Shown: piece by piece, positions 2,126 through 27,385 of the stretch
How the letters are laid out: the number at the start of each line of letters is the position of its first letter
Position numbering within the stretch: position 1 is the stretch's first letter
Sequence record: SRR20825006_2882
Length of the DNA stretch: 38,721 bases
Direction: 5' to 3' (one strand)
Program-made: the position numbers and the translations under genes
Notes under the pieces: model-generated
What the model was told of the DNA's origin: nothing
What the model saw: only the letters and a program-made list of their open reading frames with translations
Database searches by the model: none

Positions 2126-2128
2126 GGA

Positions 2129-3191: not shown

Positions 3192-4301
3192 TTGATCCTA
3201 CGAACGGAAGAATATCGAGCACGACTGGTCGAGCAGCGCGCAGAGTGGTCGACCCACCGCGGCGCCGAGATCGTCGACCGCTTTGGCGATCCGCTAAACG
3301 AGTACTGGGCAGTGCGCGATGGCGGACTCGGACTGGCCGATAGAAGCGAGCGCGCCACGGTCGTGATCCAGGGGAAGGACACGATCAACTGGCTCCAGGG
3401 TTTGGTCACCAATGACCTGATGGAGCTCGAGAAACCTGGCAGCGGGCAGCGCTCCATGGCCGTCAATCAGATCGGGCGCGCCATCACTGATATGGTGTTG
3501 CTGCATGTGCCCGAGATGTTGTTGATGGACCTCGAGCCGGGTGTCCCGGAGGTGCTCCTCCCGCACCTGCGTCACCATATTATTATGGAGAATGTCAGGG
3601 CCGAAGATCGCTCCGAGCAGACGGCGAGGATGACCTTGCTCGGCGCGCGCTCGCCGCAGCTTTTGAACAAGGTTGCCTTCCTGCAACACCGCGTCGACAA
3701 GCTGACGGAAGACCTCCAGGGATCCTGGGGCGAGATCGCGGGCAGGGATGTCGTCGTGCAGCGCACGCCCTGGATCGGGGAGCCCGCTTTCGATATCTCG
3801 TGCGCGAGAGAGGACGCGCATCTTATCTGGGACGAGCTGATGGGGGCATCGGATATGCTCCGCCCGGTGGGACACCAGGCGTTGGAGATCATGCGCCAGG
3901 AGGCTGGATACGTGCGCTTTGGCGTCGACTTCACCGAGAAGAACATCCCCGTCGAAGCCGACCTCAATCACACCATCAACTACGATAAAGGATGTTATCT
4001 GGGGCAGGAGATCATTCACCGCCTCGACACGCGCGGGACGCCAGCGAAGATGCTCCGCGTATTGGTCCCCGAGCAACCTGATGACAGCGTCGAGGCAGGT
4101 CAGGCGATCGAGGATGACAATGGCAAGAAGGTCGGTGAGGTGCAGCAGATCTTTGTCTCGCCGCAGCTCGATGACCAGCTCTTCGCGTTGGCTTACCTCA
4201 AGCGAGGCGCCTATACGCCCGGCGCGAGGGTCTTTGCTGCGGGGCATCCTGTCAGCGTCGCGCCGCTCGGTGCGCCGTTGCAAATGAGTCAGGCGAAATG
4301 A
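3192..4301 (+). CDS. ygfZ: Folate-binding YgfZ/GcvT-fold protein (Fe-S cluster maturation/repair)
   Basis: YgfZ signature KGCYLGQEII and WLQGLVTND. Probable TTG start at 3192 after GAGG; the ORF track starts at 3168. Confidence 0.85.
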   Translation: MILRTEEYRARLVEQRAEWSTHRGAEIVDRFGDPLNEYWAVRDGGLGLADRSERATVVIQGKDTINWLQGLVTNDLMELEKPGSGQRSMAVNQIGRAITDMVLLHVPEMLLMDLEPGVPEVLLPHLRHHIIMENVRAEDRSEQTARMTLLGARSPQLLNKVAFLQHRVDKLTEDLQGSWGEIAGRDVVVQRTPWIGEPAFDISCAREDAHLIWDELMGASDMLRPVGHQALEIMRQEAGYVRFGVDFTEKNIPVEADLNHTINYDKGCYLGQEIIHRLDTRGTPAKMLRVLVPEQPDDSVEAGQAIEDDNGKKVGEVQQIFVSPQLDDQLFALAYLKRGAYTPGARVFAAGHPVSVAPLGAPLQMSQAK

Positions 4302-4494
4302 CCCAGAGAGATGCATCATGCGCAGACCATGCGGCTCGGGCTTGTCATCGAGGTCCGAAAGCACTACATTCGCGGCCAGAGCGTCGATGATTCGACCTCG
4401 AGCAATCGCCACGCACCGTGACCCACGAAGAAGGTGTCGGATCGATACCTTCGACTGGCGGCATGCCCTGTCGCCGCAGCCCTGACAAGGAGCC

Positions 4495-5460
4495 ATGACC
4501 AGCCTCTACGACCGTCGTATGGTGCTCTTTTCGGGCAAAGGTGGTGTTGGGAAGACGACGCTCGCCAGCGCCTTTGCGCTAAGCTGTGCCCGGAAAGGCC
4601 AGCGCACCCTCCTTATCGAACTCAACGTCAAGGATCGCCTCAACGCCATCTTCGGCTCTGTCGAGGTTGGCCCCGAGATCGTCGAGATCGAGCAAAACCT
4701 CTTCGCCGTCAACATCTCTCCGCGCGTCGCGATGGAGGAGTACGGGTTGATGAAACTGCGCGTCAAGGTCGTCTACAAGGCGGTCTTCGAGAATCGCGTG
4801 GTGCAGTCCTTCTTGCGCGTGGTGCCAGGTCTGAACGACCTGTTGATGCTCGGCAAGTCGCACTTCCACGCGATGGAGGTCGACAGCTCGGGCAAGTTCA
4901 TCTGGGACAAGATCGTCATCGACGCGCCCGCGACAGGTCACGGGATCTTCTTCTTGAAGATCCCCAGCGTGATCACCTCCATCCTCGAATCGGGCCCGAT
5001 GTTCTCGGACGCCAAGAAGATCGAGGAGTTCTTGCGTGATCCCAAGATGACGGCGATCAACCTCGTGACGCTCCCCGAAGAGATGCCTGTCAACGAGACG
5101 CTCGAGCTGCGGCAGACGCTCGTCGACGAGCTGAAGATGCCGATCGGGATGATCGTGGCGAACTCGGTGTATGAACCTGTCTTCGATGAGCAGGAGTTAC
5201 AATGGGTGCTCGACGCCGACCCCGATAAGTTCGAGGACACGCAAACGCAAGGGTTCGTGGACGCGGCGAAGTTTCGCGCGCAACGCGTCGAGATGCAGGC
5301 CGAGTACCTCGAGCGGCTCGAGAACACCTTGAGCGAACCGTTTGTCCGCGTGCCTTATTACTTCACCGAGCGCTTCGACTTTCAGACCATCGCCAAGATC
5401 GCCGACGAGATCGACGAACAGCTCGGCGAGGAGAGCGGTTCTCAACGTTCCGCGGGTTGA
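4495..5460 (+). CDS. ArsA/Get3-family ATPase, subunit 1
   Basis: Deviant Walker A FSGKGGVGKTT, VPGLNDL, IVIDAPATGH, VTLPEEMPVNET. Confidence 0.9.
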   Translation: MTSLYDRRMVLFSGKGGVGKTTLASAFALSCARKGQRTLLIELNVKDRLNAIFGSVEVGPEIVEIEQNLFAVNISPRVAMEEYGLMKLRVKVVYKAVFENRVVQSFLRVVPGLNDLLMLGKSHFHAMEVDSSGKFIWDKIVIDAPATGHGIFFLKIPSVITSILESGPMFSDAKKIEEFLRDPKMTAINLVTLPEEMPVNETLELRQTLVDELKMPIGMIVANSVYEPVFDEQELQWVLDADPDKFEDTQTQGFVDAAKFRAQRVEMQAEYLERLENTLSEPFVRVPYYFTERFDFQTIAKIADEIDEQLGEESGSQRSAG

Positions 5461-5489
5461 TCCGGTAGCACTTTTCGAGCGAGACGATC

Positions 5490-6653
5490 ATGGCTTCCAC
5501 AGATGCAAGCAACCAGTTCGCCGACCTTATCTCGCGCCGTGAGGTCGTGGTGTGCGTCGGCTCTGGCGGGGTCGGCAAGACGACCACGAGCGCCGTGATC
5601 GCGTTGCACGCCGCGCTCGAAGGGCGCAAGGCGCTCGTGCTCACGATCGATCCTGCCAAGCGCCTTGCAAACTCGCTCGGCGTGGACGCGCTCGATAACG
5701 AGCCCACGCGCATCCCCATCGACCGCTTCGAAGAGGTCGGGCTCGAACCCAAGGGCGAGCTCTGGGCGATGATGTTGGACATGAAGAAGTCCTTCGATCA
5801 CCTGGTCGACAGGCACGCGCCAGACGAAAAGTCGCGTCAGGCGATCCTCAACAACAAGCTCTATCAGTACTTCTCGACAAGCCTCGCGGGGACACAGGAA
5901 TACGCCGCCGCCGAGCGACTTTACGAGATCTACACCAACGGCGAGTACGACCTGATCGTGCTCGATACGCCGCCGACAAGTCACGCGCTCGATTTCCTGG
6001 AGGCGCCCAACAGGCTCGTCGACGCGATCAACTCGCGCGCGATGCAGTTCCTCTACAGGCCAACCTCGGGCCTGCTCAGCGTGGGCACCAACTACGTGAT
6101 CAAGACGCTCTCGCGCTTCACTGGCGGCGAGATGCTCTCCGAGCTCGGCACCTTCCTCAAGGCGTTCTCGACGCTGTTCGCGGGATTTCAGGAGCGCGCG
6201 GGCAAGGTGCGCGAGCTGATGACCAGCGACGTGACCACGTTCACCGTGATCACGGCGCCGACGGCGGGGAACATCGACGAGGCGATTTACTTCCACAAGA
6301 AGCTCGGCGCAGATCACGCGCGCGTCGGTGGTTTTGTCACCAACCGCGTGCACCCTGCCTGGGTGCCGCGCGCCGAGTTGAGCCGTCCTTCCGGGCAGCT
6401 CTCTCGCGAGTTGTCAGGATTGAGCCAGGCGTATGACGCGCTCGATCGCGACGCTCAGAAAGAGTTCGCGCGTAAAATCCGCAGCAACGCTACAGACTTT
6501 CAGGTCCTGGCGGACCTCGACGCAGAGGCAATAGAGCTGCTCCGCGATACCATCCCGCGCAAGATCCCGATCTTGCGCGTGCCTTACTTCGCGCACGATA
6601 TCCACAGCCTCGCTGGCCTGGATCACGTGCGACGTTCACTGTTTGTCGCCTGA
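5490..6653 (+). CDS. ArsA/Get3-family ATPase, subunit 2
   Basis: VCVGSGGVGKTT, LTIDPAKRLA, LAGTQEYAAAE, LIVLDTPPTSHALDFL; 29 nt downstream of subunit 1. Confidence 0.9.
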   Translation: MASTDASNQFADLISRREVVVCVGSGGVGKTTTSAVIALHAALEGRKALVLTIDPAKRLANSLGVDALDNEPTRIPIDRFEEVGLEPKGELWAMMLDMKKSFDHLVDRHAPDEKSRQAILNNKLYQYFSTSLAGTQEYAAAERLYEIYTNGEYDLIVLDTPPTSHALDFLEAPNRLVDAINSRAMQFLYRPTSGLLSVGTNYVIKTLSRFTGGEMLSELGTFLKAFSTLFAGFQERAGKVRELMTSDVTTFTVITAPTAGNIDEAIYFHKKLGADHARVGGFVTNRVHPAWVPRAELSRPSGQLSRELSGLSQAYDALDRDAQKEFARKIRSNATDFQVLADLDAEAIELLRDTIPRKIPILRVPYFAHDIHSLAGLDHVRRSLFVA

Positions 6654-6690
6654 AAAATCAGACGACAAACAGCGAATCGAAGAGGCAGAA

Positions 6691-6972
6691 TCACTCCTGC
6701 AATGTCCAGCTGAATTCGCTCTCGTCGCTCGTGATCGTGGCCGTGCCCTGGGCACGATCCAACTGCAACGTGAGTTGCTCGGTTTCGAGCTCTGGTGCGC
6801 CAGTCCACTCATACGAGTAGGTCGAGGATGCCGGAGACACGTAGGTCCCTGACTCCAGGGACACCGGGGTTGGTGTGGGGCAGTTGAGGTGGAGGCCGCA
6901 AGCGCTCACGACGAGGGAGAGCGCGGCGCCAATGATAAAGAACAGCGTGGTTTTGAGGTGTTTCACGGTCAT
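6691..6972 (-). CDS. Small putative lipoprotein (93 aa), unknown function
   Basis: Basic N-terminus, hydrophobic stretch and lipobox-like VSAC. ATG overlaps the upstream stop (TAATG) and follows AGGAGGTGAG. Confidence 0.75.
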   Translation of the reverse strand: MTVKHLKTTLFFIIGAALSLVVSACGLHLNCPTPTPVSLESGTYVSPASSTYSYEWTGAPELETEQLTLQLDRAQGTATITSDESEFSWTLQE

Positions 6973-7223
6973 TACTCACCTCCTGTCGGCGCGCCCTTCT
7001 GGAAGGTGCGCTCCACCGAGCCTGAGCCAGAGTTGCATCTGATAAAAAGGCTCACTTCGTCGATGGCGATGACATCGCACGCGTCGCCATTTGTGTCTGT
7101 GACGGACATGACCTCGGGGTCGGTGTCTGCACAATCTGCGGATGCGTTCGCGGCTACAAAGCTCACCGCGCCAAACAAAATCCCTGCCGCCAACGCGAGC
7201 AGGGATGTCTTCTCCAGTTTCAT
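6972..7223 (-). CDS. Small secreted Cys-containing protein (83 aa), unknown function
   Basis: MKLEKTSLLALAAGILFGAVSFVAANASA|DC is a Sec signal with an AxA cleavage site. RBS AGGAGG lies 6 nt before ATG 7223. The mature part has 3 Cys. Confidence 0.75.
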   Translation of the reverse strand: MKLEKTSLLALAAGILFGAVSFVAANASADCADTDPEVMSVTDTNGDACDVIAIDEVSLFIRCNSGSGSVERTFQKGAPTGGE

Positions 7224-7296
7224 CGTAAACCTCCTGTAAACAACATACATAAAGGTGAGAACCACCCATGAAAATGGTGGCATCACCTCATTCATC

Positions 7297-7487
7297 CTAA
7301 CGAGATCGCGAGCGTGATTGAAGCTTTTCTTTCAGGCTGGCGGCGTAGTCACTCTCGCTGCTCTTGATCACGACGGCTTTGCCCGCGCGGTCGACCTCGA
7401 TGACCAGCCGTTCGCGGCGGTGAAGCTCACCGCGCCAAACAACATACCTACGAGAAGCGTCAGTAAGGACGCTCGATCCAACTTCAT
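7297..7487 (-). pseudogene. Deleted, out-of-frame fusion relic of a paralogous copy of the 7223-6691 two-gene module
   Basis: ATG 7487 with GGAGG RBS gives MKLDRASLLTLLVGMLFGAVSFTAAN, a paralog of the 7223 signal peptide (20 nt identical, 7423-7442 vs 7159-7178). After ~7408 another frame reads LVIEVDRAGKAVVIKSSESDYAASLKE, colinear with the lipoprotein C-terminus LTLQLDRAQGTATITSDESEFSWTLQE. Confidence 0.75.
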
Positions 7488-7610
7488 CGTGAACCTCCAT
7501 CTGTGGTGATGCCACCCAGGGTAATCGGTCGTGCTGTGAATAACGATCCTGAAAACCCCTGCCAGCTCTCGTTGTTCCTTGTTTTCGTGCTCACGCCAAC
7601 GCTGGCGCGA

Positions 7611-7691
7611 GGACCGTTTGGGGGTGACTTTTTTGCCGCCAAGCGTCGGTCGAAAAAACCGGGTATCAAAAAAGTCACCCCCAAACGGTCC
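7611..7691. repeat. Perfect 25-bp inverted repeat with 31-nt spacer
   Basis: GGACCGTTTGGGGGTGACTTTTTTG (7611-7635) is the exact reverse complement of CAAAAAAGTCACCCCCAAACGGTCC (7667-7691). Confidence 0.95.
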
Positions 7692-7873
7692 GAGCCGATG
7701 CGACCCGCTGTGCAGGCCAGGATTCGTATGCTCGATGTGCGGCGAGTGGAGGAAACCCGTGTTGTCTCTCGCCGATCTTGGCGGTACAAGAGCCCTTTCC
7801 TCTGGCCGGGGATATCGAGTCCCCGGCACGGAGCGTAGGAAAGAGAACCGCTTAGACAAAGAGAAGGGCAAGG

Positions 7874-9430
7874 ATGCAAATCGGGCACCGCGATCTCACG
7901 TTCCAGGACATCGAACGCGTTGTTTTTCAACGCGAACAGATCTTACTCGCACCCGAGGCCAGGGAGGCGGTCAAAAGATCCGCTGCCTTCGTGCGCGAGC
8001 GGGCCATGAGCGGCGACGCGATCTATGGCGTCACCACTGGTTTTGGCGCGAACCGCGACCGCGTGATTCGACCCGAGGACGCGGAGACCTTGCAGGAGCG
8101 CCTGTTGATGAGTCACGCCTGCGGCGTGGGTAATCCGCTGCCGACACCGGTGGTGCGCGCGATGATGTTGCTGCGTATCAACGCACTGGCGCGCGGCAAT
8201 TCGGGCATTCGCCTCGAGACACTGGAGCTACTGGCGAGCATGCTCAACGCCAACCTCCATCCCATCATCCCGGAGATCGGGAGCGTGGGCGCGAGCGGTG
8301 ATCTTTGCCCGCTCGCCCACATGTGCTTGCCCATCATCGGCCTGGGCGAGGCGGAGGTCGGCGGCGAGGTGCTCGCCGGCGGTGACGCGATGCACAGGGT
8401 GGGGCTAAACCCCACCAACCTCACGTACAAAGAGGGTCTGGCGCTCCTCAATGGCACCCAGGCGATGACCGCGCTCGGGGTCGTGGTGATTCATATCGCG
8501 GACCGCGTGCTCGACTGCGCGGATGCCATCGGAGCGATGAGCCTGGAGGCCGTTGCTGGCCGCCTGGCGGCCATGGATGCGCGCATCCACACCTTGCGTG
8601 GCAGGACCGGACAGAAGCAAAGCGCGGCCAATGTACGCGCGATCCTGGAGGGGTCCGAGCTCGCTGGCGCACAGCCCGGGCAAGTCCCCGGCAAGGTCGA
8701 CTACGTGCAGGATTCCTACTGTTTGCGTTGCATGCCACAGGTTCATGGCGCATGCCGCGATGTGGTCGAATACGTGCGCGGTGTCCTCGTGATCGAGGCC
8801 AACGCCGTGACCGATAACCCGCTCGTGTTCCTTCCTACCGATGAAGAGCCAGAAGGGGCGGTGCTCTCGGGCGGAAACTTCCACGGCGAACCTGTGGCGA
8901 TGGCGCTCGATTACCTCAAGATCGCGCTCGCGGAGCTCGGCAACATCTCCGAGCGTCGCTCGGCAAAGCTCGTCGACAAGTACTTCTCCGAAGGGCTCCC
9001 CGCGTTCCTCGTGAGCAACCCCGGGCTCAACTCCGGGATGATGATTCCACAGTATGTGGCCGCCGCGCTCGCCAGCGAGAACAAGGTCCAGGCGACGCCC
9101 GCGTCGACCGACTCGATCCCTACCAGTGCGAACATGGAGGACCACGTCTCGATGGGGTCTCATGCGGGTTTGCACGCATGGAAGGTGCTTCGCAACACCG
9201 AGAAGATCCTCGGGATCGAGTACCTGACGGCGTCTCAGGCGCTCGACTTGCGCGAAGGCTTCAAGCTCGCGCCAGGCACGAAAAAAGCGCACGAGTTGCT
9301 TCGCGCGCGCGTGTCCTTCATGGAGGAAGATCGCGTCCTCTACCCTGACATCGATCAGGCCACCGCGCTGATCCATGATGGATCGCTGGCGGCGTGCGTG
9401 TCGTCGTCACTGGCGGAACGTGTGGAGTGA
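7874..9430 (+). CDS. hutH: Histidine ammonia-lyase (MIO-dependent aromatic amino acid lyase family)
   Basis: IYGVTTGFG, LLMSHACGVG (HAL-type SH), GSVGASGDL (MIO tripeptide ASG), KEGLALLNGT, QDSYCLRC, GGNFHG, EDHVSMG. Confidence 0.9.
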   Translation: MQIGHRDLTFQDIERVVFQREQILLAPEAREAVKRSAAFVRERAMSGDAIYGVTTGFGANRDRVIRPEDAETLQERLLMSHACGVGNPLPTPVVRAMMLLRINALARGNSGIRLETLELLASMLNANLHPIIPEIGSVGASGDLCPLAHMCLPIIGLGEAEVGGEVLAGGDAMHRVGLNPTNLTYKEGLALLNGTQAMTALGVVVIHIADRVLDCADAIGAMSLEAVAGRLAAMDARIHTLRGRTGQKQSAANVRAILEGSELAGAQPGQVPGKVDYVQDSYCLRCMPQVHGACRDVVEYVRGVLVIEANAVTDNPLVFLPTDEEPEGAVLSGGNFHGEPVAMALDYLKIALAELGNISERRSAKLVDKYFSEGLPAFLVSNPGLNSGMMIPQYVAAALASENKVQATPASTDSIPTSANMEDHVSMGSHAGLHAWKVLRNTEKILGIEYLTASQALDLREGFKLAPGTKKAHELLRARVSFMEEDRVLYPDIDQATALIHDGSLAACVSSSLAERVE

Positions 9431-9446
9431 GGTGTGGGAGGGCTCG

Positions 9447-9824
9447 TCAGGAGACGAGCCCTTCGAGCATGGGGCCGAGCTGGGTCATCATCCCTGGCAA
9501 CCCGGCGTCCTTGCTGATGGCCCCTTGAGCACCGCGAGCGCGCGCGATCTCGTCGAGATCTCCCTGCGGCATCCCCGACACCAAAATGATCGGCGTCTGC
9601 GAGAGGTGCGGGATCGTGCGAAGGCCCTGAACGGGGTCATTTTGAGGCGCGTCGGGCATGTTGAGGTCGGTCAACACCACCGATGGCGCCTCCTCGGAGA
9701 CGAGTGTGTCGACCTGAGAGAACGCGAGCGCGCTCGTGGTCCTGTAACCGAGCTGGCCACAAATCATCTCGAGCATACTCACGATCAGTTCGCTATCGTC
9801 GAGAATCAAAACCAACTTGGACAT
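9447..9824 (-). CDS. Single-domain response regulator (CheY-like receiver)
   Basis: VLILDD, LTDLNMP (phospho-acceptor Asp), ILVSG, AISK. Start set at MSKLV (9824). Confidence 0.88.
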   Translation of the reverse strand: MSKLVLILDDSELIVSMLEMICGQLGYRTTSALAFSQVDTLVSEEAPSVVLTDLNMPDAPQNDPVQGLRTIPHLSQTPIILVSGMPQGDLDEIARARGAQGAISKDAGLPGMMTQLGPMLEGLVS

Positions 9825-9877
9825 CTGCCGTCCTGTTGCTTGTCTGTTGTGTGTGAACGGGGCGTGCGTCGAGCAAC

Positions 9878-11533
9878 TCAATCCTTTTCGATGAGCTCTT
9901 CGACGACTTCGAGCAAGAGGCCGCCGCCGATCTCGCCCTTCACGAGGAAGCGGTTGGCGCCAGCATCGAAGGCATCCTGGCGTACCTTATCGGAGTCAAG
10001 GCTTGTCAGCAAGACGATCGGGATCTGAGCGATGTGTGCGCTGACACGCACTGCTCTCGTCAACTCGTAGCCAGACATCGAGGGCATCTGCCAGTCCGAA
10101 ATCAGCAGGTCGAAGCGCTCGCGCTCGAGCTTGGTGAGCGCCTCGTGGCCATTGCTCGCGAGCACGATGTCGTAGTCCCCCTCCGAGAGCACGAAGGCGA
10201 TGGACGCCGCGACGGTCTCGGTGTCCTCGGCGACGAGGATGCGTCTGCGCGAGGCGCGATGTACTGCCTCCGTGGGCACGAAGGGCGCGATCTTGAGCAG
10301 CTCGCGCACGCGATGTACCAACTCTCCGCCGCCGATCGAGCCCTTGATGATGTAGTCATTGGCGCCAGCGTCAAAGCCCGCGTCGCGCTCGTTCGGGTGG
10401 TCGAGCGAGGTCAGCAGAATCACCGGGATGTCGCTCAGGTAGTCGTCATCGCGGATCATGCGCGTGAGCGCGATCCCGTCCAACCTGGGCATCGCGATAT
10501 CACTGATAATCAGCGAATAGGGCCGCTCGCGCAGCATCCTGAGCGCTTCCTCGCCATTGCTCGCGATGTCGAGCGGCAGGTCCAGCTCGCCCAACACGAA
10601 CCCGATCGACGCCGCGATGGTGTCGACATCATCGACGATCAGGATACGTTGCTCCATCCCGTCGAGCGATATGGTTTGCTCGAGCTCGATGGGCGGCTTC
10701 TTTGGCTTGGGCTGCTTCTTGCGGTGTTGCGGAGGCGCGCTCGGTGTGTTCTGCGTCGGCACCTCAGGAGGACGCTTCCTTCCCTTCGCCGATGGCGTCT
10801 CGGCCTGTGTCTCTTCCTCGAGAGGTCGCGAGAGCTCCTCGAGCGTGGTGTGACTGAGCAAATCATCGAAGCATTCCTGCAACGACGAGAGCACCTGCGC
10901 AGCTTCCTGCGCGTCCACGTGAACATCCGAGGCGTGAATCGCGGTCTCGAGCAACCTGTACCCATTCATCAACGGCTTGGTTGGCCACACGCGCTCTTCT
11001 GGTGGGAGCTTGCGCATGGTGACGAGCACCTGCTCCATCAACCCCGAGATATCCGCCAGCTCCTTGAGCCCCAACATCGCCGCGCCGCCGCGGATCGCGT
11101 GCAGGTGCTGCGCGCTCTTGTCGAGCGCCTGGTTCGAGCCCTGGTGGTTAAACAACCCCATCATCGAGAGCGAGAGCCCCGAGAGCCGCTTCTGTGCTTC
11201 GTTTTGAAACGCCGAGATAAACTGCTTGAGGCCTTCCTCGACCGAGGATGTTCGCCCCGTCGGTTCGGGCTCGGGTGGTTCTTCTCGGGTGCGTGGGACG
11301 AAGAAGTCGGCGACTGCCTTGAGACCCTGGAGCAACACCTCGAGCTGGGTCGAGGTCGCCTCGTCATCGATCTGCGTCGAGCCGAGCTGCTCGAGTAACT
11401 TATCGAGCCCACGCGTGATCTCTTCGACACCTTCCAACGCATGAGTGCCTTCCCCTTCCAACAGGGAGGAAAGACGTGTGCGTGTCTCCTCGATCTCCTG
11501 CGTGAGATCGGTTGTCGGGGAGGATTCTGACAT
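9878..11533 (-). CDS. Hpt + two receiver domains phosphorelay protein (no kinase domain)
   Basis: Hpt motif AQHLHAIRGGAAMLG; Pro/Lys-rich linker; REC1 ILIVDD..ISDIAMP..LLTS..YIIKG; REC2 ILVAED..ISDWQMP..LLTS..FLVKG. Confidence 0.88.
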   Translation of the reverse strand: MSESSPTTDLTQEIEETRTRLSSLLEGEGTHALEGVEEITRGLDKLLEQLGSTQIDDEATSTQLEVLLQGLKAVADFFVPRTREEPPEPEPTGRTSSVEEGLKQFISAFQNEAQKRLSGLSLSMMGLFNHQGSNQALDKSAQHLHAIRGGAAMLGLKELADISGLMEQVLVTMRKLPPEERVWPTKPLMNGYRLLETAIHASDVHVDAQEAAQVLSSLQECFDDLLSHTTLEELSRPLEEETQAETPSAKGRKRPPEVPTQNTPSAPPQHRKKQPKPKKPPIELEQTISLDGMEQRILIVDDVDTIAASIGFVLGELDLPLDIASNGEEALRMLRERPYSLIISDIAMPRLDGIALTRMIRDDDYLSDIPVILLTSLDHPNERDAGFDAGANDYIIKGSIGGGELVHRVRELLKIAPFVPTEAVHRASRRRILVAEDTETVAASIAFVLSEGDYDIVLASNGHEALTKLERERFDLLISDWQMPSMSGYELTRAVRVSAHIAQIPIVLLTSLDSDKVRQDAFDAGANRFLVKGEIGGGLLLEVVEELIEKD

Positions 11534-11652
11534 GAGTGATCGGCGGGTAGAGAAATTCTATGTTTTGATCGTGCTCCGATGATGCGCCAACGAAGGCCAG
11601 AACACAAGAACCCAGAAGATATCTCAAAGCAGTCACGCTGGCGCAAGCACTT

Positions 11653-12027
11653 TCATCGAGACATCAGCGCGCGTGCACGCGCGATCGCTGATGAATCCTC
11701 ACCATGCGCGATCACGTAGGCGAGGGCGCCGCGCGCCTCGGCGTGCTCGCCGGCAAGCAGCAGCACCTCGCCGAGCCCGAGTCGAACCTCCGTGTTGGTC
11801 GGCTCGAGCTGCTGCGCGTGCTTGAAGCATCCGATGGCGCGTCCCAGGTCACCGCGCCTCCGTGCGATCAACCCCAACGCCTGCCATGGATACCCCATCT
11901 TTGGCGCCAACACCGTCAGCCCCGCGAAGATCTTCTGCGCTTCGTCCAGACGTCCTCGCTCCAGATACGTCCAGCCAAGGTGTGCCAGACTCCAGAGTTC
12001 ATCTTCTCGCCAGGTCGCGTTCGTCAT
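11653..12027 (-). CDS. Small TPR protein, SycD/LcrH (class II T3SS chaperone)-like
   Basis: Three TPR-like helical pairs (LGWTYLERGRLDEAQKIFAGL, ALGLIARRRGDLGRAIGCF, LGEVLLLAGEHAEARGAL); 23 nt downstream of sctU. Confidence 0.75.
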   Translation of the reverse strand: MTNATWREDELWSLAHLGWTYLERGRLDEAQKIFAGLTVLAPKMGYPWQALGLIARRRGDLGRAIGCFKHAQQLEPTNTEVRLGLGEVLLLAGEHAEARGALAYVIAHGEDSSAIARARALMSR

Positions 12028-12050
12028 CTCGTTCCTCCTCTTCTCGGGTC

Positions 12051-13097
12051 TCAGTTGGTGCGCGCCAGCGCGTAGACTTGTCGCAAGATGACCGCGACGG
12101 ATTCATAAAACTGTTCGGGGATTTCGACCTCGACGCCGACCTCGACCAGCGCCCTCGCAAGCGGCACGTCGCGCACGATCGGGACGTTGTGCTTGCGGGC
12201 GAGGCGGCGGATTTGCGCGGCCACCTCGCCGCGTCCCGCGGCGATAATCATCGGCGCGCCGCCCTCGTCCTCGCGATAGCGAAGCGCCACGGCCACGTGC
12301 GTCGGGTTGACGACCACAGCGTCCGCGTCCTTCACGCGCTGGACGCCAGGATCGTTGATCAGTTCGTGGTGGAGCTGCTGGCGCTTTCCCTTGAGCATCG
12401 GGTCTCCCTCGCTCTCCTTGTACTCGCGCTGCACCTCGTCCTTGCCCATCATCAGCTTCTTGTTGTGCCGATGGCGCTGCCACAGCAAATCCGCCACGCC
12501 AAACAGAAGCAGCGCCGAGAGCATCGTCACCGACAATCGCAACGCGCTATCCCCCAACGCGGTCAGGCCGTGAACGAGTCGCCCGCGAGGTGTGGTCGCC
12601 AACCTCGGGATCTCGTCGGCCAGGATCGAGACCCCGATCACGCCCATCAAAGAGAGCTTGAGCAAGTTCTTCACCAGCTCGACGAGCTTGTCCTTGTTCA
12701 CCAGATTCTTGGCGTTGTTCGCCATGTTCAGGCGGTTCGCGTCCGGTATCAATGGCTTCATCGTGAACAGCGCGCCGATCTGGATGTAGGTGAAGAACGC
12801 CGCCGCCACGAACGCCACGCCGAGCATCGGTCCGATGCATTCGGCCAGCGTGAGCAACCCATCGAGCATGAAGCGCTCGACGACCTCGGGGCCGATCGAC
12901 TCGCGGCTCACCAGCGTGATCGTGTGGCGCATGAAGTCGAGCAGGCGCGTGAAAATCATCGTCGAGCTCGCCAGCAGCGTCCCGAACGCAGCGAACATCA
13001 CCATCACACCGGAGAACTCGCCGCTCTTGGCGACGTCTCCATCCATGCGCGCTTTGCGCTTGCGTTTGGGTGTGGCTTCTTCGGTCTTCTCGCTCAT
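12051..13097 (-). CDS. sctU: Type III export switch protein SctU (YscU/FlhB family)
   Basis: MSEKTEEATPKR..ARMDGDVAKS, LMMGKDEVQREYKESEGDP, intact autocleavage motif VVNPTHVAVAL, VPLARAL. Confidence 0.95.
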   Translation of the reverse strand: MSEKTEEATPKRKRKARMDGDVAKSGEFSGVMVMFAAFGTLLASSTMIFTRLLDFMRHTITLVSRESIGPEVVERFMLDGLLTLAECIGPMLGVAFVAAAFFTYIQIGALFTMKPLIPDANRLNMANNAKNLVNKDKLVELVKNLLKLSLMGVIGVSILADEIPRLATTPRGRLVHGLTALGDSALRLSVTMLSALLLFGVADLLWQRHRHNKKLMMGKDEVQREYKESEGDPMLKGKRQQLHHELINDPGVQRVKDADAVVVNPTHVAVALRYREDEGGAPMIIAAGRGEVAAQIRRLARKHNVPIVRDVPLARALVEVGVEVEIPEQFYESVAVILRQVYALARTN

Positions 13098-13101
13098 ACC
13101 G

Positions 13102-13929
13102 CTAGCCCCCCATCGCCAGAGATTGCATGACCGCTTCGATAAACTGGATGCCCGTGATCGCCTCGCGCATCGTGCGCTCGACCAGAGCTTGCAAGGTCAT
13201 CAGCACGACCACGATCCCCGCCAGCGCCTTGATTGGCATCCCCAGAAAGAAGACGTTGATTTGCGGCGCCGCGCGGTTGACCATCGCCAGGCAAAGATCC
13301 GTCAGCAAGATCGCCGCGATCACGGGGAACGCCATCACCACGCCGAGCGTGATCGCGTCTGTCGCCAACCGAGTGATTCCGAACGCCACCGCGCCCAGAT
13401 GATCTCCCAGTGGAGGCATCGTTTGTGGAGGGATCGCCGCGAATGAATTGACCAACGCGGCGATAAACAGGCGGTGTCCGCCAAGCAACAGAAAGACCAC
13501 CACGTTGAGCTGATACAGGTAGTCGCTCGTCACGCTCACGCGCTCCTTGAGCTGCGGAACAAACGCGGTGGCTTGCGTCTGGCCACGCGCGTTGTCGATG
13601 AGTTGACCTGCGATCCTGACGGCGTCGAACACCAGCGTGGCGACGAAGCCAAAGGTGAACCCGAGCAACAACTCCTTGCACAGCAACACCGTCAGCGCCA
13701 ACGCGCCATCAGGCAGCGCTGCCGCCGCGCCCGAACCCCACACCAGCGGATAAATCATCCCTGTCAGCGCGATCGTCAGCCCCATCTTCACGAGCTGTGG
13801 GACAGCCTTCCCGCCAAGGTAGGGCACCATCATCACGATCGGCGCGACGCGTGCGGCGACGAGCGCCCACAGCAAGATCGCGCGATCGAGCAAGGCCTGG
13901 GTGGCGGGGTCTGTGAAGAGGTCGAACAT
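13102..13929 (-). CDS. sctT: Type III export gate protein SctT (YscT/FliR family)
   Basis: Multi-TM protein; KELLLG, AGQLIDNARG (YscT-like IDNxRG), NRAAPQINVFFLGMPIK. Confidence 0.93.
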   Translation of the reverse strand: MFDLFTDPATQALLDRAILLWALVAARVAPIVMMVPYLGGKAVPQLVKMGLTIALTGMIYPLVWGSGAAAALPDGALALTVLLCKELLLGFTFGFVATLVFDAVRIAGQLIDNARGQTQATAFVPQLKERVSVTSDYLYQLNVVVFLLLGGHRLFIAALVNSFAAIPPQTMPPLGDHLGAVAFGITRLATDAITLGVVMAFPVIAAILLTDLCLAMVNRAAPQINVFFLGMPIKALAGIVVVLMTLQALVERTMREAITGIQFIEAVMQSLAMGG

Positions 13930-13953
13930 GAGGAGTTTATCAGCCTTTCAATA

Positions 13954-14208
13954 TCAGTGGATGCCGGAGAAGACGAGGTGCGTGAAGCGCACCAACTGCG
14001 CGCCGATCCAGGGCGCCGAGATGGCAAGGCTGACGAACACGGCCACCAACTTCGGGACAAACGTCAAGGTCTGCTCCTGAATCTGGGTCGTGGCCTGCAC
14101 GATGCTCACCAACAAGCCGACAAACAGGCTCGTGAGCACCGGCGGCGCCGACACGATGAGCGCGAGCAGTAGCCCTTCGCGGGCGATCTGGAGGATGAAG
14201 TCTTCCAT
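13954..14208 (-). CDS. sctS: Type III export gate protein SctS (YscS/FliQ family)
   Basis: VGLLVSIVQATTQIQEQTLTFVPKL. Start set at MEDFIL (14208). Confidence 0.95.
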   Translation of the reverse strand: MEDFILQIAREGLLLALIVSAPPVLTSLFVGLLVSIVQATTQIQEQTLTFVPKLVAVFVSLAISAPWIGAQLVRFTHLVFSGIH

Positions 14209-14218
14209 CGAATAACCC

Positions 14219-15016
14219 TCACACGTAGCCCAGGATGAGGCCCTTGACGACCAGGTACCAGCCATCGACGAGCACGAATAACAGCAGCTTGAACGGCAAA
14301 CTCACCGTCGTGGGGCTGAGCATATGCATCCCCAGACTGAGCAGGATGTTGGCCACCACCAAATCCACGATCAGGAAGGGGACAAAGAGCAGGAAGCCGA
14401 TGGTGAACGCCTCCTTTAACTCGGTCAGCACGAACGCCGGGATGGCGATGATGAGGTCATCGGCCTCGAGTGATTTTTGCTGCTCGGGCGTGCGCAGCTG
14501 AATCGCCAGCTCGTGCAAAAGCACGCGCTCTGCCGGGTCAGCGTGCTTGAGCAAGAAGCCCTTGAGCGGCTTGACCGCTTCCTTTGCCGTGCCCACCCAC
14601 TCCTTGTACTCGGGTTGCTCCTCGGTTTGTTCGATTTGCTGCACCACAGGTTCGATGACCTGGTAGGTGTCCATCGCCACGGGCGCCATGATGTAGACGC
14701 TGAGCACGATCGCCAGGCCGGTGATGACCTGGTTTGGAGGGACCTGCTGCGCGCCGATGGCGGTGCGAAGCAGCGAGAGCACCACGGCGACTTTGACAAA
14801 GCTCGTGACCATGATGAGCAGGAACGGCAAGAGCGCGAGCCCCGCCAGGACGGCGATCAACCCGAGCGGGTTGCCGCCGCTGGCGCCGGGAGCGCCCTGA
14901 GCAAACGCGCTCTGGGCCATCAGGAAGACGCCTGCGCCAGCGAGCGATGCCACAGCGAGCGGTGCGCGCCCTGGCCATCTCGAGGAGACGTTTGGATGTG
15001 TGGTGGAGTCGTTCAC
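14219..15016 (-). CDS. sctR: Type III export gate protein SctR (YscR/FliP family)
   Basis: PFLLIMVTSFVK, AIGAQQVPPNQV, FLLKHAD, IPAFVLTELKEAFTIGF, SLPFKLLLFVLVDGW. Probable GTG start at 15016 after AAAGAGG. Confidence 0.95.
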   Translation of the reverse strand: MNDSTTHPNVSSRWPGRAPLAVASLAGAGVFLMAQSAFAQGAPGASGGNPLGLIAVLAGLALLPFLLIMVTSFVKVAVVLSLLRTAIGAQQVPPNQVITGLAIVLSVYIMAPVAMDTYQVIEPVVQQIEQTEEQPEYKEWVGTAKEAVKPLKGFLLKHADPAERVLLHELAIQLRTPEQQKSLEADDLIIAIPAFVLTELKEAFTIGFLLFVPFLIVDLVVANILLSLGMHMLSPTTVSLPFKLLLFVLVDGWYLVVKGLILGYV

Positions 15017-15055: not shown

Positions 15056-15378
15056 TCGTGGTTTGCATTCACTCTGGTTTTCGGCCTCGATCACTGCGAG
15101 GTTGCGTCGCGGCGAGAAAAAACTTTCTTCGACCGTCCTCGCCGCAACAGAGGTGTGATGATCGTGCTGGTAAAGGCGAATGATCCTGCGATCTCCCGCT
15201 ATCCCGCCCACAAATCGAGACCGTGACACTGTGATAGCCGATTCCTCGCGAGCCGTCACGAGACGAGCGGCGAGAGCGAAACCGGCGCGCTGCTCCTCGC
15301 CGCACTCGGGCAGCGGTGTTATGGTGTGCGAGGAATTGCACCCGCGATACTCCAGGCAAAAACAACAAAGAGTCGACG

Positions 15379-16140
15379 ATGACGATCACCAATGAAGAAG
15401 AGCTCGAGGGGATGCGTGCGGCTGGAAAGCTGGCGGCGGTGATCCTCGAAGAGATGCTCGAGCACGCCGAGGTCGGGATGACCACCGGCGAGCTCGACGC
15501 GTTCGGGGTCAAATTGATGGAAGAGCACGGCGCCAACTCCGCGCCGCAATCAGTAGGCTTCCCCGCGGCGACATGCATCAGCCTCAACGAGGAGGTCGCG
15601 CACGGCATCCCCGGAGATCGCGTGATCGAAGCTGGCGACGTGCTCAACGTCGACGTGTCGCTCGAGCTCGACGGTTTCTTCGCTGACAACGGCGCGACGA
15701 TCCCGATGGGCGAGGAGGCAGAACGATACCTTCCCCTTATCGACGCGGCGCGCGAGGCCAGGGATCACTCCATCAGGTTGTTGCGCGCGGGGGCGCCGTA
15801 CAACATCCTCGGTCGCGTCTTCGAGCAGCACGCCAAGCGCAACAAGTACAAGGTGATCCGCAACCTCTGCTCGCACGGCATCGGGCGCAGCCTGCACGAG
15901 GAACCCTCCGAGCTGCTCGGGTTCTACGATCGCTTCGATCGCCGCAAGTTCCATCATGGCCAGGTCATCACCGTCGAGCCCTTCATGAGCACGGCGACCA
16001 ACTGGGTCGAAGAGGCGAGCGATGGTTGGACGTTGCTCAATACGCCGGGAGGACGCTCGGCGCAGTTCGAGCACACGTTGGTGATCCTCAAGGGTCGGGA
16101 GCCCGAGATCCTGACGTTGCCCCCCTCGATGTCTGCCTGA
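15379..16140 (+). CDS. map: Type I methionine aminopeptidase
   Basis: GFPAATCISLNEEVAHGIPG, NVDVS..GFFADNG, SHGIGRSLHEEP, TVEPF, SAQFEHT. Start at MTITNEEE. Confidence 0.95.
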   Translation: MTITNEEELEGMRAAGKLAAVILEEMLEHAEVGMTTGELDAFGVKLMEEHGANSAPQSVGFPAATCISLNEEVAHGIPGDRVIEAGDVLNVDVSLELDGFFADNGATIPMGEEAERYLPLIDAAREARDHSIRLLRAGAPYNILGRVFEQHAKRNKYKVIRNLCSHGIGRSLHEEPSELLGFYDRFDRRKFHHGQVITVEPFMSTATNWVEEASDGWTLLNTPGGRSAQFEHTLVILKGREPEILTLPPSMSA

Positions 16141-18045: not shown

Positions 18046-18669
18046 TCACTCGTCGTGCGTGATCAATCCCTTGGCCAGCGTATCCACGGCCATCTTGATG
18101 AAGGGCTCGAGGTCATCGCCAAACGGGTCGAGCCCGAGCGCTTCCTGAGCCATCGGCGCGACGTTGAAGAAGTTGTGCGAGGCGCCAAGCACGTAGAAGA
18201 GCAGCAGCTCGGGGCGGATCGCTTTATCCAGCGTGCCCTGTTGCTGCCCGAGCTTGAAGATGGAAATCACGGCCTCGTATTGATCGCGCAGGTGAGTGTC
18301 GATCAGCCATGTGAGTCGCGGGGATGGCGAGGTCGCCTCGTGATTGACGAGGCGAGAGACGTGGGGATGTGCCGCGCTAAAGCGCAGGAACTTCTCGAAG
18401 CTCGCCAGCAGCGCTTCGTGTGGTGGGAGGTCAGGATCGAGCGCCGTCACCACGCGAATCTCACCGAAGACGCGGTTCATCGCGGCTTTCCAGAGGTCTT
18501 CTTTCGAGCCAAAGTGATGGTAAACCAGCGGCTGCGCGACCTTTGCCGCGCGCGCGAGCTTGGTGGTCGAGGTGCCGTCGTAGCCCACCGCCGAGAAGGA
18601 TTCGATCGCGGCCTGGAGCAAGCGCTCCTTGCCATCCTGGTCGCTCGTGCTCTTGGCTTTCGATGACAC
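18046..18669 (-). CDS. TetR/AcrR-family transcriptional regulator
   Basis: ERLLQAAIESFSAVGYDGTSTTKLARAAKVAQPLVYHHFGSKEDLW is a TetR HTH. Confidence 0.93.
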   Translation of the reverse strand: MSSKAKSTSDQDGKERLLQAAIESFSAVGYDGTSTTKLARAAKVAQPLVYHHFGSKEDLWKAAMNRVFGEIRVVTALDPDLPPHEALLASFEKFLRFSAAHPHVSRLVNHEATSPSPRLTWLIDTHLRDQYEAVISIFKLGQQQGTLDKAIRPELLLFYVLGASHNFFNVAPMAQEALGLDPFGDDLEPFIKMAVDTLAKGLITHDE

Positions 18670-18689
18670 CTTTGGAGTTCCTTTCGAGG

Positions 18690-21600
18690 TCAGGCGAAGA
18701 CGTCCGTCAGGTATCTGCCCTGTTGGACGAGCGCTTCGAGTTTCTCGACCCCGCTCGAGTCATCCTCATCATCTGATCCCGAGAGGATGCGCGCCAGGGT
18801 TTCGTAGACTGCGGGCTCCATGTGGCGCCCATCACCGCAGACGTATACCACAGCGCCTTCATCGACAAGAGCACGAACCCTCTCTCTGGCACGCCAAACG
18901 GCGTGTTGGACGAAGCGATGTTCCTCGTCTGGTCCTTCAGAGAAGGCGGGGAAGACTTCGAGCAAACCGTGTTCGACCATCGGCTCCCACTCCTGATGAT
19001 AGAGGAAGTCGACCTCGGGGTGGTCACACCCGAAGAAGAGCAGGGCGCGCCCCTCGCCGCGGTGCTCGAGCTCTTGCAGGAAGCCGCGAAACGGCGCGAT
19101 CCCCGAGCCAGCGCCGATGAGAATCATCGGCGTCGCGTGATCCTCTGGCGGATAGAAAGGCTTGGTGGGTCGCTCGAGCAGCAGGGTGAGTTTGTCGCCA
19201 GGTTCGGTCTTTGCCAGGTAGTTCGACGCGATCCCCTTGTGGCGACCTTCCCCAGACCACGCTGGCGCGTCGAGCACAGACACGGTCAAGCTACACTGCG
19301 AGGAGGACTGCGTTGGCGAGGACGCGATCGAATAGCGCCTTCGGCGCATGGCAGGCAGCATCGCGAGCGCGTTGGCGAATGAAACAGCGCTCGAGGGGAA
19401 TCTCTCCAGGAGCTCGACCAGTGATAATCGCTTCGAGAAGACCTCGTCTTGATAGGCTCGCTCATCATTGGCCAGACGATCGAGCTCGGCCTGGTGCGGC
19501 GGACATGCGTTGTTTTTTGCCAACCTGGCGACATCCGAGCGCGTCGCCGGTGCGGCGAGTTCGACATGTCTTGCCAGCAACTCGCCGACAGAAATTGGCT
19601 GCTCGGTGGGCAGCGATGCATCCGCCATCGGCGCGCGAACCACCACCACATCATTTTGTTTCACGTGAAGCACGCGCGCCGCTCTGGCGACGAGCTCGGG
19701 TGGATTCTCTGGCAAAACCGAAACGTAGTCACCGACGTGGTAGCGGCTGTTTTCAGGGAGCGCGATCTCGAGGTGGCGTTTGGAGCGCGCGAACGGGGCG
19801 TTCATATCGACGAGTTCGCGGTTTTCGAGCACTTCGCTCTCGAGCAGAGATCGCCTGGAGAGCCACTCGTCCCATTGCCGGGCGCCGACTGGTTCGACCT
19901 GATAGAGCGCCTCATGATCGTCTTTCGCGTCCAGTGAGAATGCGTCATTGGCGGCATCCCAGAATTGCTCGGACCATTGCTCGATTGTGCCAAAGAAGTC
20001 ACCAGCGGCGTCCGCTTCGCCTCGTGGTGTGATGCGCGTGGCGCCGCATCGCTCGAGCTCTGAATCGAGGAGTTTCGGGATCGCCTGATAGGTCGAAGCC
20101 CAGTCGCGATGCCCGCAGCCGAGGACGGCAAATCGAGTGTCCTCGAACGCGCCCTCGGGCTGTTGTTTTAGCCACGAGACAAAGGTTCGCGCGTTGTCTG
20201 GCGGGTTGCCGTTGTAGGAAGCCGAGACGAGGATGATGGCGCCCTGGTCCGGGAGTTCGCCGGTTTGGGCGTCGAGTGACTTTGCCGACGCGTTCCAACC
20301 CCGCGCTGCGCCTGTGGCGGCGAGCTTTCTGGCGACCGCTTCGGCCGATCCCGCGTTCGAACCGAAGAGCACCAGCAGCGGCGTTTGATGGGCATCAGTG
20401 ATTTCGGTTTCTTCACGCTTGTTCGCCTGGAGTGCGCTCGTCGAGACCGTGGTGTTTCTTTGCACGACGTCGCGGCGTTTTTTGGCGCGCACGTAGAGAT
20501 CGGCGGGTTTTGTCGTGAGCGCCTCTTTTTCGTGGAGTGTGTACGGGGCAGGGCGCTCGAGGTCAAAGCGTTGCACGAGCATCGAGAGCGCGAGCTTGGC
20601 CTCCTGCATGGCGAACTGCGAGCCGATGCATGCGCGAGGGCCGTTGCCAAAGGGCATCCAGGCGCGATCGGGGATCTTGCCGATGTTTTCTGGAGAGAAG
20701 CGCTCGGGGTCGAACACTTCAGGTTTGTGCCAGACCCTGGGATCTCGGTGGATTTCAGGGAGCAGGAGCAAGAATTTGCTCCCTGCGGGGACCTCCCATT
20801 TGCCGGCGAGCGTGGTGTCCTCGATCGCTTCTACGCCGAAGGCGGGAGCGGTCGGAGAGAGGCGCAAGGACTCGCGCAGGACCTGTTCTGTGTAGGTCAG
20901 CTTGGCGACATCCGAGAAGATGGGGATGCGGTCTTCGAGGATCTCGTCGACTTCATCGCGAAGCCTCTTCATCGCGACGGGGTTATCGAGCAGGTAGTGC
21001 GTGGCATAAGAGAGGAGGCCGCTCGTGGTTTCATGGCCAGCGATGAGGAAGGTCACGAGCTGGTGTCGGATGTTCTCATCGCTGAGCTTTTCGCCGGTCA
21101 CAGGATCAGCGCTCACGAGCATACGTTCGAGCAAGTCCTGTGGTGTTTGTTCGCCGCGTGCGTGCATCGCCTTACGCTTTTGGACGACCTCTTCGGTGGT
21201 GCGTTGGATCACATCGAGCGCTTCGTCGAGGGCTCGCTGCCTGTGAACCAGCGCGCTGTTGAGGACAGCCGGGCGCTTGGTTCTCGCCGAGGATTCGATG
21301 AGGCTCTCGAGCATGGCGTCGACGAATTCGTGCTGCCCCTCCTGATAAAACGAGTTGAAGCGGAAGTTGAACGCGCAGAGCGCGAGCGTGTCGAGCGTCA
21401 GACGCGTCCATTGATCGGGGACATCATGGATTTCTTCAGGACCGAAGCGCTCCCAACGCGTGAGCATTTGTTCGATGATGTCGAGCATCGGCTCGAAGTA
21501 GTCAGGGAGCGCCATGGTGCCAAAAGCGGGCATGAGCAGGCGGTGCGCCTTTGCCCAGTTTGGCTCGTGGTTGTAGGCGGTGAAGAGGCCATCGCCGCCG

Positions 21601-21851: not shown

Positions 21852-21875
21852 GGCGTTCCTCACGATTGATTCATT

Positions 21876-27379: not shown

Positions 27380-27385
27380 GCGCGC

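Follow-up and report, generated by a model that had tools for sequence, protein, structure and literature searches.

Myxococcus xanthus carries a type III secretion system that lacks a needle, T3SS* (MXAN_2434-2464), which is reported to act together with a Kil/Tad pilus in contact-dependent prey lysis (PMC10433427, PMC12075869); the myxobacterial T3SS* has been viewed as an intermediate form (PMC10433427). For Bradymonas sediminis, EscR with an adjacent 'FliQ', EscV, YscQ and EscN are listed under distant locus tags (PMC7460792 Table S4), and most of the listed T3SS genes are up during predation (PMC7460792). A needle-less T3SS* was proposed for Bradymonabacteria in 2024 (PMC11509652). For predatory Myxococcota, the way in which contact with prey is sensed and the Kil/T3SS* machinery turned on is still an open question, and a 2023 review calls their prey-recognition mechanism unknown (PMC10433427). 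Here we describe a locus in a 38,721-nucleotide (nt) stretch of DNA from record SRR20825006_2882 (the window). A stand-alone set of T3SS export gate genes, sctRSTU, is followed by a gene for a small tetratricopeptide repeat (TPR) protein and by two signalling genes. The first of these encodes a histidine phosphotransfer domain fused to two receivers (Hpt-REC-REC, the fused protein), and the second encodes a single receiver (REC). We favor, with a probability of about 55%, a reading in which the locus consists of two units: a T3SS* gate operon and, beside it, a phosphotransfer pair fed by a CheA-type kinase.

Like the M. xanthus T3SS*, the system seen in relatives of this locus has non-flagellar SctRSTUV/N/L/J/Q, includes LcrH-like TPR chaperone genes and belongs to Myxococcota, and its SctU clade joins Myxococcota gates. 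No T3SS secretin or needle was detected in five relatives. The M. xanthus genes form one cluster, whereas in the relatives studied here the genes are spread over at least four loci, with the gate alone and, in many of them, a FliO-like gene; no Hpt/REC pair is mentioned for T3SS* in the available parts of the M. xanthus papers. With the Bradymonabacteria T3SS (PMC7460792, PMC11509652), our locus shares the clade, as judged by homologue names, the dispersed genes and the position of EscR beside FliQ. The available parts of those papers deal with apparatus genes only and mention neither the TPR gene nor the signalling pair. As a Bradymonas T3SS is already published, the stand-alone gate is a member of a known, little-studied system. 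The initial annotation had proposed an undescribed control module. This holds for the signalling pair, of which we found no published description in the bradymonad and myxobacterial T3SS literature (PMC11509652 Table S4 could list neighbours), and it does not hold for the Bradymonadia T3SS and its induction during predation. The new element seems to be a conserved neighbour of the gate: a phosphotransfer protein of CheA P1 type together with a CheY-like receiver.

As a motif alone cannot separate an injectisome from a flagellum, HMM cut-offs and a phylogeny were used instead to place the gate. We surveyed 61 relatives, namely G001, whose SctU is 97% identical to that of the window, and 60 more genomes. 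SctU orthologues (at least 38% identity) were found in 34 of them; apart from G001, the window protein is 42-59% identical to the gate orthologues. A maximum-likelihood SctU/FlhB tree of 58 rows (quick search, LG+G4, SH-aLRT) included the window, 26 of the 34 gate orthologues, nine Bradymonadia flagellar paralogues, 12 matches from more distant relatives, L002, L003 and eight named references. Near-copies and truncated sequences were left out (L062, L063, L065, L069, L083, L084, L121 and L125). Classic injectisomes formed one group with a support of 98 (YscU, Spa40, SpaS, a rhizobial and a Pantoea SctU), and flagellar FlhB formed another with a support of 96 (three named references and all nine Bradymonadia flagellar paralogues). 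The window SctU fell into a third group, in which the Bradymonadia gates (95) were joined by four other Myxococcota gates (90) that are stand-alone or sctV-linked. It shares 35-38% identity with the Bradymonadia flagellar FlhB, compared with 25-34% for the named references. By these comparisons, the gate is non-flagellar and yet not a classic injectisome. This agrees with the intermediate position that has been assigned to T3SS* in the literature.

The NCBIfam profiles point in the same direction for SctR, which passed TIGR01102 yscR (234.8; cut-off, 208.6) and remained below TIGR01103 fliP (191.3; cut-off, 217.45). As a control, the FliP encoded in the flagellar locus of G001 scored in reverse (fliP, 250.2 over 217.45; yscR, 192 under 208.6). 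SctU passed neither SctU (329 under 358) nor FlhB (299 under 349) and leans to SctU. SctT passed neither fliR (158.3 under 168.6) nor SctT (146.6 under 163.05), and SctS passed both fliQ (92.7; cut-off, 88.9) and SctS (87.5; cut-off, 76.5). The PDB sequence search was dropped as a flagellar-versus-injectisome classifier; it was uninformative, both types being about equally distant. All four gate genes have intact open reading frames (ORFs), as the initial annotation had stated. The NPTH site of SctU corresponds to N264-P265-T266-H267, in which N and P are invariant in the 35 sequences, and alignments to solved cleaved fragments begin at residue 265. The motifs IDNARG and FLLKHAD, which had been called injectisome-like, are present in the window proteins. 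A classic injectisome identity does not follow from them, with SctU in the third clade and SctS and SctT leaning to the flagellar side. Immediately upstream of sctR, one relative has a FliO-like gene of 153 aa (PF04347, 33.1 bits; cut-off, 22; L061:14724-15185, minus strand).

The rest of the machine was traced in the relatives. A contig of a Myxococcota metagenome-assembled genome (L001, G001:C6) has the same gene order as the window, map-sctRSTU-TPR-Hpt-REC-hutH. Another contig of this genome (C74, L019) encodes SctN (609.1, over the cut-off of 604.75), an SctJ-like protein (147.3, under 161.95) and a weak SctL/FliH-like protein. On a third contig (C80, L026), positions 115-9979 contain genes for a sigma-54 activator and three unknowns, and also for proteins resembling FliK/SctP and SctQ (the latter 94.2, under 100.8); the activator heading this locus has no receiver recognisable by Pfam. 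FHIPEP was present in 29 of 30 relatives and fell into two score classes, with seven genomes having one of each. Examples of the lower class pass hrcV/SctV (787-794, over 692) and fail FlhA. Most of the 34 gate-bearing relatives also encode SctV and SctQ of non-flagellar type. In three complete genomes, the gate, sctV and sctQ are 0.16-4.1 Mb apart and do not form one large cluster: sctV lies 1.9-2.7 Mb from the gate, and sctQ occupies a third place (see the last rows of Table 1). No T3SS-type secretin exceeded the yscC cut-off in five relatives (best score, 149 under 238.45), and the needle family had no match in the relatives, with control genomes equally silent. The proposal that the gate belongs to a reduced, split, non-flagellar T3SS with its other parts elsewhere was thus borne out in relatives (Bradymonadia). 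On sequence grounds, the window gate is the export-gate operon of a Myxococcota-type non-flagellar T3SS in a Bradymonadia-like marine bacterium. Its remaining parts would be encoded elsewhere: sctV alone, a cluster with a putative sctI followed by sctJ-sctL-sctN, and a locus with the sigma-54 activator, a putative sctP and sctQ.

Several unassigned proteins accompany these loci. On L019, a family-less 317-aa protein is encoded between the sctJ-like and sctL-like genes (12533-13486), and a 180-aa protein with a weak YscI/inner-rod match (E 0.0017) is encoded at 14293-14835; they could represent divergent forms of SctD/K and SctI, respectively. The three unknowns of L026 (426, 445 and 1035 aa) have no Pfam or NCBIfam family and are candidates for missing T3SS* parts or substrates.

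The TPR gene belongs to the gate operon. It lies downstream of sctU in 28 of the 34 gate loci, of which tblastn showed 25 and clustering another three, and it stays by sctU wherever the signalling pair has moved, which argues that it is part of this operon. The protein scored best with LcrH_SycD (55.0 bits), below the cut-off of 104.8, followed by SctY (37.9; cut-off, 70). Its structure model has seven helices and a predicted local distance difference test (pLDDT) value of 95.7. The best natural full-length fold matches were IpgC, SycD, PcrH and AcrH, with query-normalized TM scores (TMq) of 0.84-0.87. Designed consensus TPRs matched equally well; thus, the fold alone is not specific for a SycD-type chaperone. 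Size and 3.5-TPR fold are those of the class II chaperones SycD, LcrH, IpgC, PcrH and SicA, and the order of sctU and chaperone gene corresponds to spaS-sicA in Salmonella pathogenicity island 1 (SPI-1). Unlike class II chaperones, the window protein remains below the family cut-off and no translocator genes follow its gene. Judged from the model and the gene order, it is a SycD/LcrH-like, that is, class II chaperone-like, protein of the gate operon.

The signalling pair consists of a kinase-less fused protein, P1-linker-REC-REC, which has neither P2-P5 nor any other output, and a single CheY-like receiver, likewise without an output domain. A Pro/Lys-rich linker follows the Hpt domain. H143, H145, D301/D302, D345, E436/D437 and D480 of the fused protein are invariant in 31 aligned sequences, and D10, D53, S83 and K105 of the single receiver do not vary either (24-31 sequences). 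With a profile of residues 90-232, six CheA P1 entries were matched at E 5.7e-7 to 3.7e-5; an engineered P1 repeat was matched at E 8e-9, and other Hpt proteins only at E ~0.9. The Hpt domain was modelled with five helices at a pLDDT of 90.7, and CheA P1 domains made up all nine of the best fold matches (TMq 0.70-0.75 for eight), with Foldseek E-values of only 2.7e-3 to 5.8e-2. The CheA3 P1-CheY6 structure 3kyi was among the fold matches. Both profile and fold therefore agree with the earlier guess that the phosphorelay is chemosensory. Homologues of the fused protein form at least 120 clusters at E <= 1e-93; they come from Lujinxingia, Bradymonas, Persicimonas, Microvenator and unnamed Myxococcota, and those with names are called only 'response regulator' or 'CheY-like'. 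Both fused receivers end in K-G-x-I-G-G-G-x-L just past the conserved Lys (residues 396-405 and 532-541). The GGG of REC1 is invariant in 31 sequences, an unusual motif in the alpha-5 region.

Rhodobacter CheA3/CheA4 and Myxococcus FrzE-FrzZ/FrzX are known examples of CheA P1 domains that work in trans and of CheA-CheY hybrids whose outputs are receivers only. The pair resembles these pathways in its five-helix P1 with H-x-I-[KR]-G-G, its receiver-only partners and the presence of a CheA-REC kinase in the same genomes. It differs in that P1 is fused to two receivers without P2-P5, and in that the pair is encoded next to a secretion gate and not in the Che cluster; any phosphotransfer is a prediction. 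No HATPase or HisKA family was detected by Pfam in any ORF of the window, and there was no conserved kinase neighbour across 41 loci. The relatives carry a CheW-(128 aa)-MCP-CheA-REC cluster (MCP, methyl-accepting chemotaxis protein). CheA-REC orthologues, defined by a kinase core of at least 45% identity, were searched for in all 61 relatives; partial contig-end matches in G007, G028, G031 and G036 were counted, and a 32% match in G010 was excluded. H-kinase_dim (PF02895) missed CheA in three of five genomes; in these three it was recovered with the CheW domain and with a protein as query. Of the 36 genomes carrying gate or pair, 29 had both pair and kinase, five had neither, one had only the pair (G023) and one had only the kinase (G036). 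Fisher's test of this co-occurrence gave p 9e-5 (uncorrected for kinship), and three independent contrasts on the tree were all concordant. The pair would most likely be fed by this Frz/Chp-like CheA-REC hybrid kinase encoded elsewhere. Two other relationships were rejected: a P1-less CheA served by the fused P1, since the CheA-REC of one relative has its own Hpt, and a recent duplication of the CheA-REC P1, since BLASTP gave no alignment and hhalign gave 19% identity.

The neighbourhood of gate and pair, about 20 kb around each locus, was compared by tblastn. The fused protein was matched in 37 of the 61 relatives (E <= 1e-20), with a full-length orthologue in 30 (E <= 4e-81). The other seven matches were to receivers only, and no full-length orthologue was found in 24 more distant relatives (G038-G061). 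The single receiver follows the fused gene in all 30 loci. The pair is beside the gate in 23 of the 34 gate loci, a synteny with sctU for which the initial annotation had suggested a test: it is co-oriented downstream of the TPR gene in 13, convergent in seven and upstream of sctR in three. This adjacency persists down to 42% SctU identity. Five of the 30 pair loci have no gate within the stretch, and two are on contigs too short to tell. In the five genomes with the pair elsewhere, a different contig carries the gate, or 2.4 Mb separate the two, and the pair is twice still beside hutH. As a control for synteny, hutH was present in 10 and map in two of the 30 pair loci. On the SctU tree, the states of arrangement require at least seven changes, and linked versus unlinked requires at least five. 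Repeated rearrangement with adjacency kept, while hutH and map are rarer, favours selection for adjacency and is no proof of function. Insertions of 1.1-2.6 kb between the TPR and Hpt genes in four relatives contain lineage-specific ORFs and no shared kinase. In one further locus (L119, G022:C17), hutH abuts sctU and both the TPR gene and the pair are missing, in a genome without a CheA-REC orthologue; this arrangement resembles the outcome of a clean joint loss, or else a state preceding gain.

Transcript fragments were available for the locus. Six RNA runs contain part of the window, and contigs were compared from four marine metatranscriptome runs belonging to four studies. The junction between fused gene and receiver gene is bridged by RNA contigs in three runs (9470-9977, 9626-10272 and 9397-9960). 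One contig (10647-11547) ends 14 nt upstream of the Hpt-REC-REC start codon, and short contigs were found on sctU, sctT, sctS/T and sctR. RNA libraries can contain DNA, and a contig over two genes proves neither a single transcript nor its level; these data are therefore a weak hint only that the pair is its own unit. The pair is most likely its own transcription unit, which would start in the 119-nt gap. No terminator-like or sigma-70-like site was detected in this gap and none upstream of sctR, the counts being at chance level. Likewise, there was no sigma-54-like match in the gap or upstream of sctR; the window contains 41 such matches versus 37.6 expected by chance.

With no output domain in either receiver protein, the output has to rely on contacts between proteins. 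The pair might pass on a chemosensory signal, or one of contact, to the T3SS*, or it might co-ordinate T3SS* use with movement. Coupling of this kind would explain why selection kept the pair beside the gate through several rearrangements. That the pair regulates the T3SS* is a possibility against which the odds still stand. A more specific version, in which a CheA-type kinase charges P1-REC-REC and the CheY-like receiver then binds the T3SS* sorting platform (SctQ, or SctL/N/U) and gates or localises secretion at prey contact, is unlikely. If true, it would mean that a predatory secretion system had kept the CheY-to-C-ring link of its flagellar ancestor, SctQ being the FliM/FliN homologue. 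The pair, with its four phospho-sites H145, D345, D480 and D53, is a concrete candidate for the prey-contact switch, conserved beside the gate across Bradymonadia, marine predators that can be cultured and are non-pathogenic. If its adjacency to the gate is mere synteny, the result is an ordinary one, another copy of a published system.

A number of observations weigh against a functional tie between pair and gate. The pair is not beside the gate in 11 of the 34 gate loci, and G003, G010, G022, G026 and G027 keep the gate, with no pair found. These loci and genomes indicate that the pair is not an obligatory, dedicated part of the system; the dedicated control module suggested by the initial annotation is not supported. 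The neighbours uppS, thiD, murF-alr, infC and hutH are conserved in subsets too, so some of the adjacency is plain backbone synteny. The five gate-only genomes all lack the CheA-REC kinase, which ties the pair more firmly to the chemosensory system than to the T3SS, and with only three contrasts, a sign test for the link to the kinase cannot reach significance (p 0.25). Moreover, CheA-REC has its own P1, distantly similar to the fused P1 (19% identity, hhalign probability 84%), and no RNA contig in the four runs covered 11548-12469 or bridged the TPR-Hpt gap, missing coverage in itself being no proof. The unlinked loci and the conserved housekeeping neighbours suit an explanation in which the pair is the output branch of a Frz- or Chp-like chemosensory pathway for motility or pili, and its place beside the gate is inherited. 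The CheA P1 type of the Hpt domain, the co-occurrence of the pair with the kinase and not with the gate, and the two pairs found with hutH instead all agree with it. FrzE of Myxococcus has dual-REC and single-REC outputs (FrzZ and FrzX), a parallel to the pair. This explanation has to contend with an adjacency that survives three arrangements, that is commoner (23 of 30 pair loci) than the one to hutH or map, and that is not replaced by one to the Che cluster, beside which the pair was never found in the loci examined. We regard it as the main alternative, less likely than our reading. Control of the scattered sct genes at the level of transcription, through an unlinked DNA-binding regulator such as a sigma-54 system, is improbable. 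The sigma-54 activator of the sctP-sctQ locus, a sigma-54 gene that adjoins the Che cluster in one relative, and the induction of sct genes during predation in Bradymonas would be in line with it. However, the activator has no receiver domain in Pfam, the sigma-54-like matches described above are absent from the relevant upstream regions and near chance number in the window, and no DNA-binding receiver is linked to any of the 30 pair loci.

The remaining doubt concerns the gate itself, which could be a fliPQR-flhB set of a flagellum or else an orphan copy in decay, without a working machine. SctS and SctT score slightly higher on the flagellar models, and the best solved relatives are flagellar (158 versus 149 bits for SctR; 149 versus 84 bits for SctU). 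In 18 of the 34 gate loci of relatives, although not in the window, a FliO-like gene is found upstream of sctR, and the G001 draft has no SctV-type FHIPEP, only flagellar FlhA. All this speaks against our reading. FliO is usually regarded as flagellum-specific; here, the FliO-like gene is another flagellar-like trait of this lineage's non-flagellar T3SS. The same G001 genome provides an internal control, because its true flagellar gate lies on a separate contig (fliP-(Q)-fliR-flhB-flhA-flhF) with an FHIPEP that passes FlhA (819.6, over 772.1), and both the reciprocal HMM cut-offs and the tree separate it from the window gate. A further G001 contig contains fliF-fliG-fliH-fliI and a rod gene, and flagellar FlhB paralogues are present in nine of the 34 gate-bearing relatives. 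Thus, a flagellar regulon exists in the lineage, as the initial annotation had considered, and the window gate lies outside it and does not cluster with it: it does not reach the fliP cut-off, is not in the flagellar clade and has no flhA/flhF linkage. Four intact genes, the conserved NPTH site, the orthologues in more than half of the relatives, mostly accompanied by non-flagellar SctV and SctQ, and the transcript fragments of sctR, sctS/T and sctU also argue against decay, and this explanation is largely refuted. We therefore retain the assignment to a T3SS* gate operon. Its layout is unusual, with one T3SS over at least four loci and a gate with flagellar-like traits (the FliO-like gene and the FliQ/FliR-like scores), and bears on how injectisomes arose from flagella. 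A full-looking flagellar set of G001 (fliF-G-H-I, fliN, fliP-R, flhB-A-F) is distributed over contigs C143 and C237 (L005, L006 and L021).

Table 1. Positions of the locus genes, their flanks and the domains of the fused protein in the window, and of gate, sctV and sctQ in three complete relatives
Feature	Position	Strand	Assignment
sctR	14219-15016	-	Pfam FliP, 225.8 bits; export gate, FliP/SctR family
sctS	13954-14208	-	Pfam Bac_export_3, 103.4 bits; FliQ/SctS family; internal ATG taken
sctT	13102-13929	-	Pfam Bac_export_1, 193.4 bits; FliR/SctT family
sctU	12051-13097	-	Pfam Bac_export_2, 345.0 bits; switch protein, NPTH site at residues 264-267
TPR gene, 124 aa	11653-12027	-	Pfam TPR families; small 3.5-repeat protein, SycD/LcrH-like
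Gap between gate operon and signalling pair	11534-11652	-	119 nt
Hpt-REC-REC gene, 551 aa	9878-11533	-	Pfam Hpt, 36.0 (cut-off 24.6), and two Response_reg stretches
Variable N-terminus of Hpt-REC-REC	aa 1-~95	-	Variable region
CheA-P1-like five-helix Hpt	aa ~100-232, nt 10838-11236	-	Phospho-His H145 in H-A-I-R-G-G
REC1	aa 296-415, nt 10289-10648	-	D345
REC2	aa 431-548, nt 9890-10243	-	D480
REC gene, 125 aa	9447-9824	-	Pfam Response_reg, 43.7 bits; internal ATG taken
hutH	7874-9430	+	Pfam Lyase_aromatic; flank
map	15316-16140	+	Pfam Peptidase_M24; flank
G017 (complete)	gate 4.59 Mb, sctV 2.72 Mb, sctQ 0.51 Mb
G020 (complete)	gate 3.53 Mb, sctV 0.85 Mb, sctQ 3.35 Mb
G030 (complete)	gate 1.08 Mb, sctV 3.51 Mb, sctQ 0.92 Mb

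The ORF listing of the window shows seven co-oriented minus-strand ORFs between hutH and map (Table 1). The coordinates agree with the gene number and spacing first annotated, and the Pfam families of the two flanking genes confirm the boundaries. From sctR through the TPR gene, the intergenic gaps are 10, 24, 4 and 23 nt, followed by 119 and 53 nt. The start of sctR is uncertain, its frame being open up to 15259; in the 265-aa form, the Pfam domain begins at residue 57 and is preceded by a signal-like hydrophobic stretch. The absence of other T3SS or flagellar genes from the window, also noted initially, was corroborated in two ways. Pfam detected no T3SS or flagellar family in the 18 other large ORFs, and tblastn of the window with a relative's SctV/N/J/L/Q/P, FlhA/F and FliF/G/H/I matched the four gate genes only. 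Rfam and tRNA scans of the window gave no match. The remaining genes encode a Mur ligase, ArsA-like ATPases, a DUF4241 protein, a metallo-beta-lactamase fold protein, a TetR regulator, a P450-reductase fusion, NDH-2 and a RecBCD-like trio, together with five ORFs without a family.

Three regions outside the gate locus may be mentioned. Between the ArsA-like gene and hutH, 1.2 kb of lower G+C content (0.566; positions 6654-7873) contain no confident gene. Two ORFs on the minus strand whose signal-peptide-like starts are nearly identical (…TMKLEKTSLLALAAGILFGAVSF… and …TMKLDRASLLTLLVGMLFGAVSF…) are present there and perhaps encode tandem small secreted proteins. Upstream of the RecC/RecB/RecD-like trio (28982-38669), three successive plus-strand ORFs of 837, 221 and 350 aa (24101-28687) have no Pfam family. 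On the minus strand at 18046-21878, a P450-flavodoxin-FAD/NAD reductase fusion of 1062 aa with BM3-like architecture adjoins the TetR regulator gene, and the same fusion and TetR pair also flanks the locus in relative L001.

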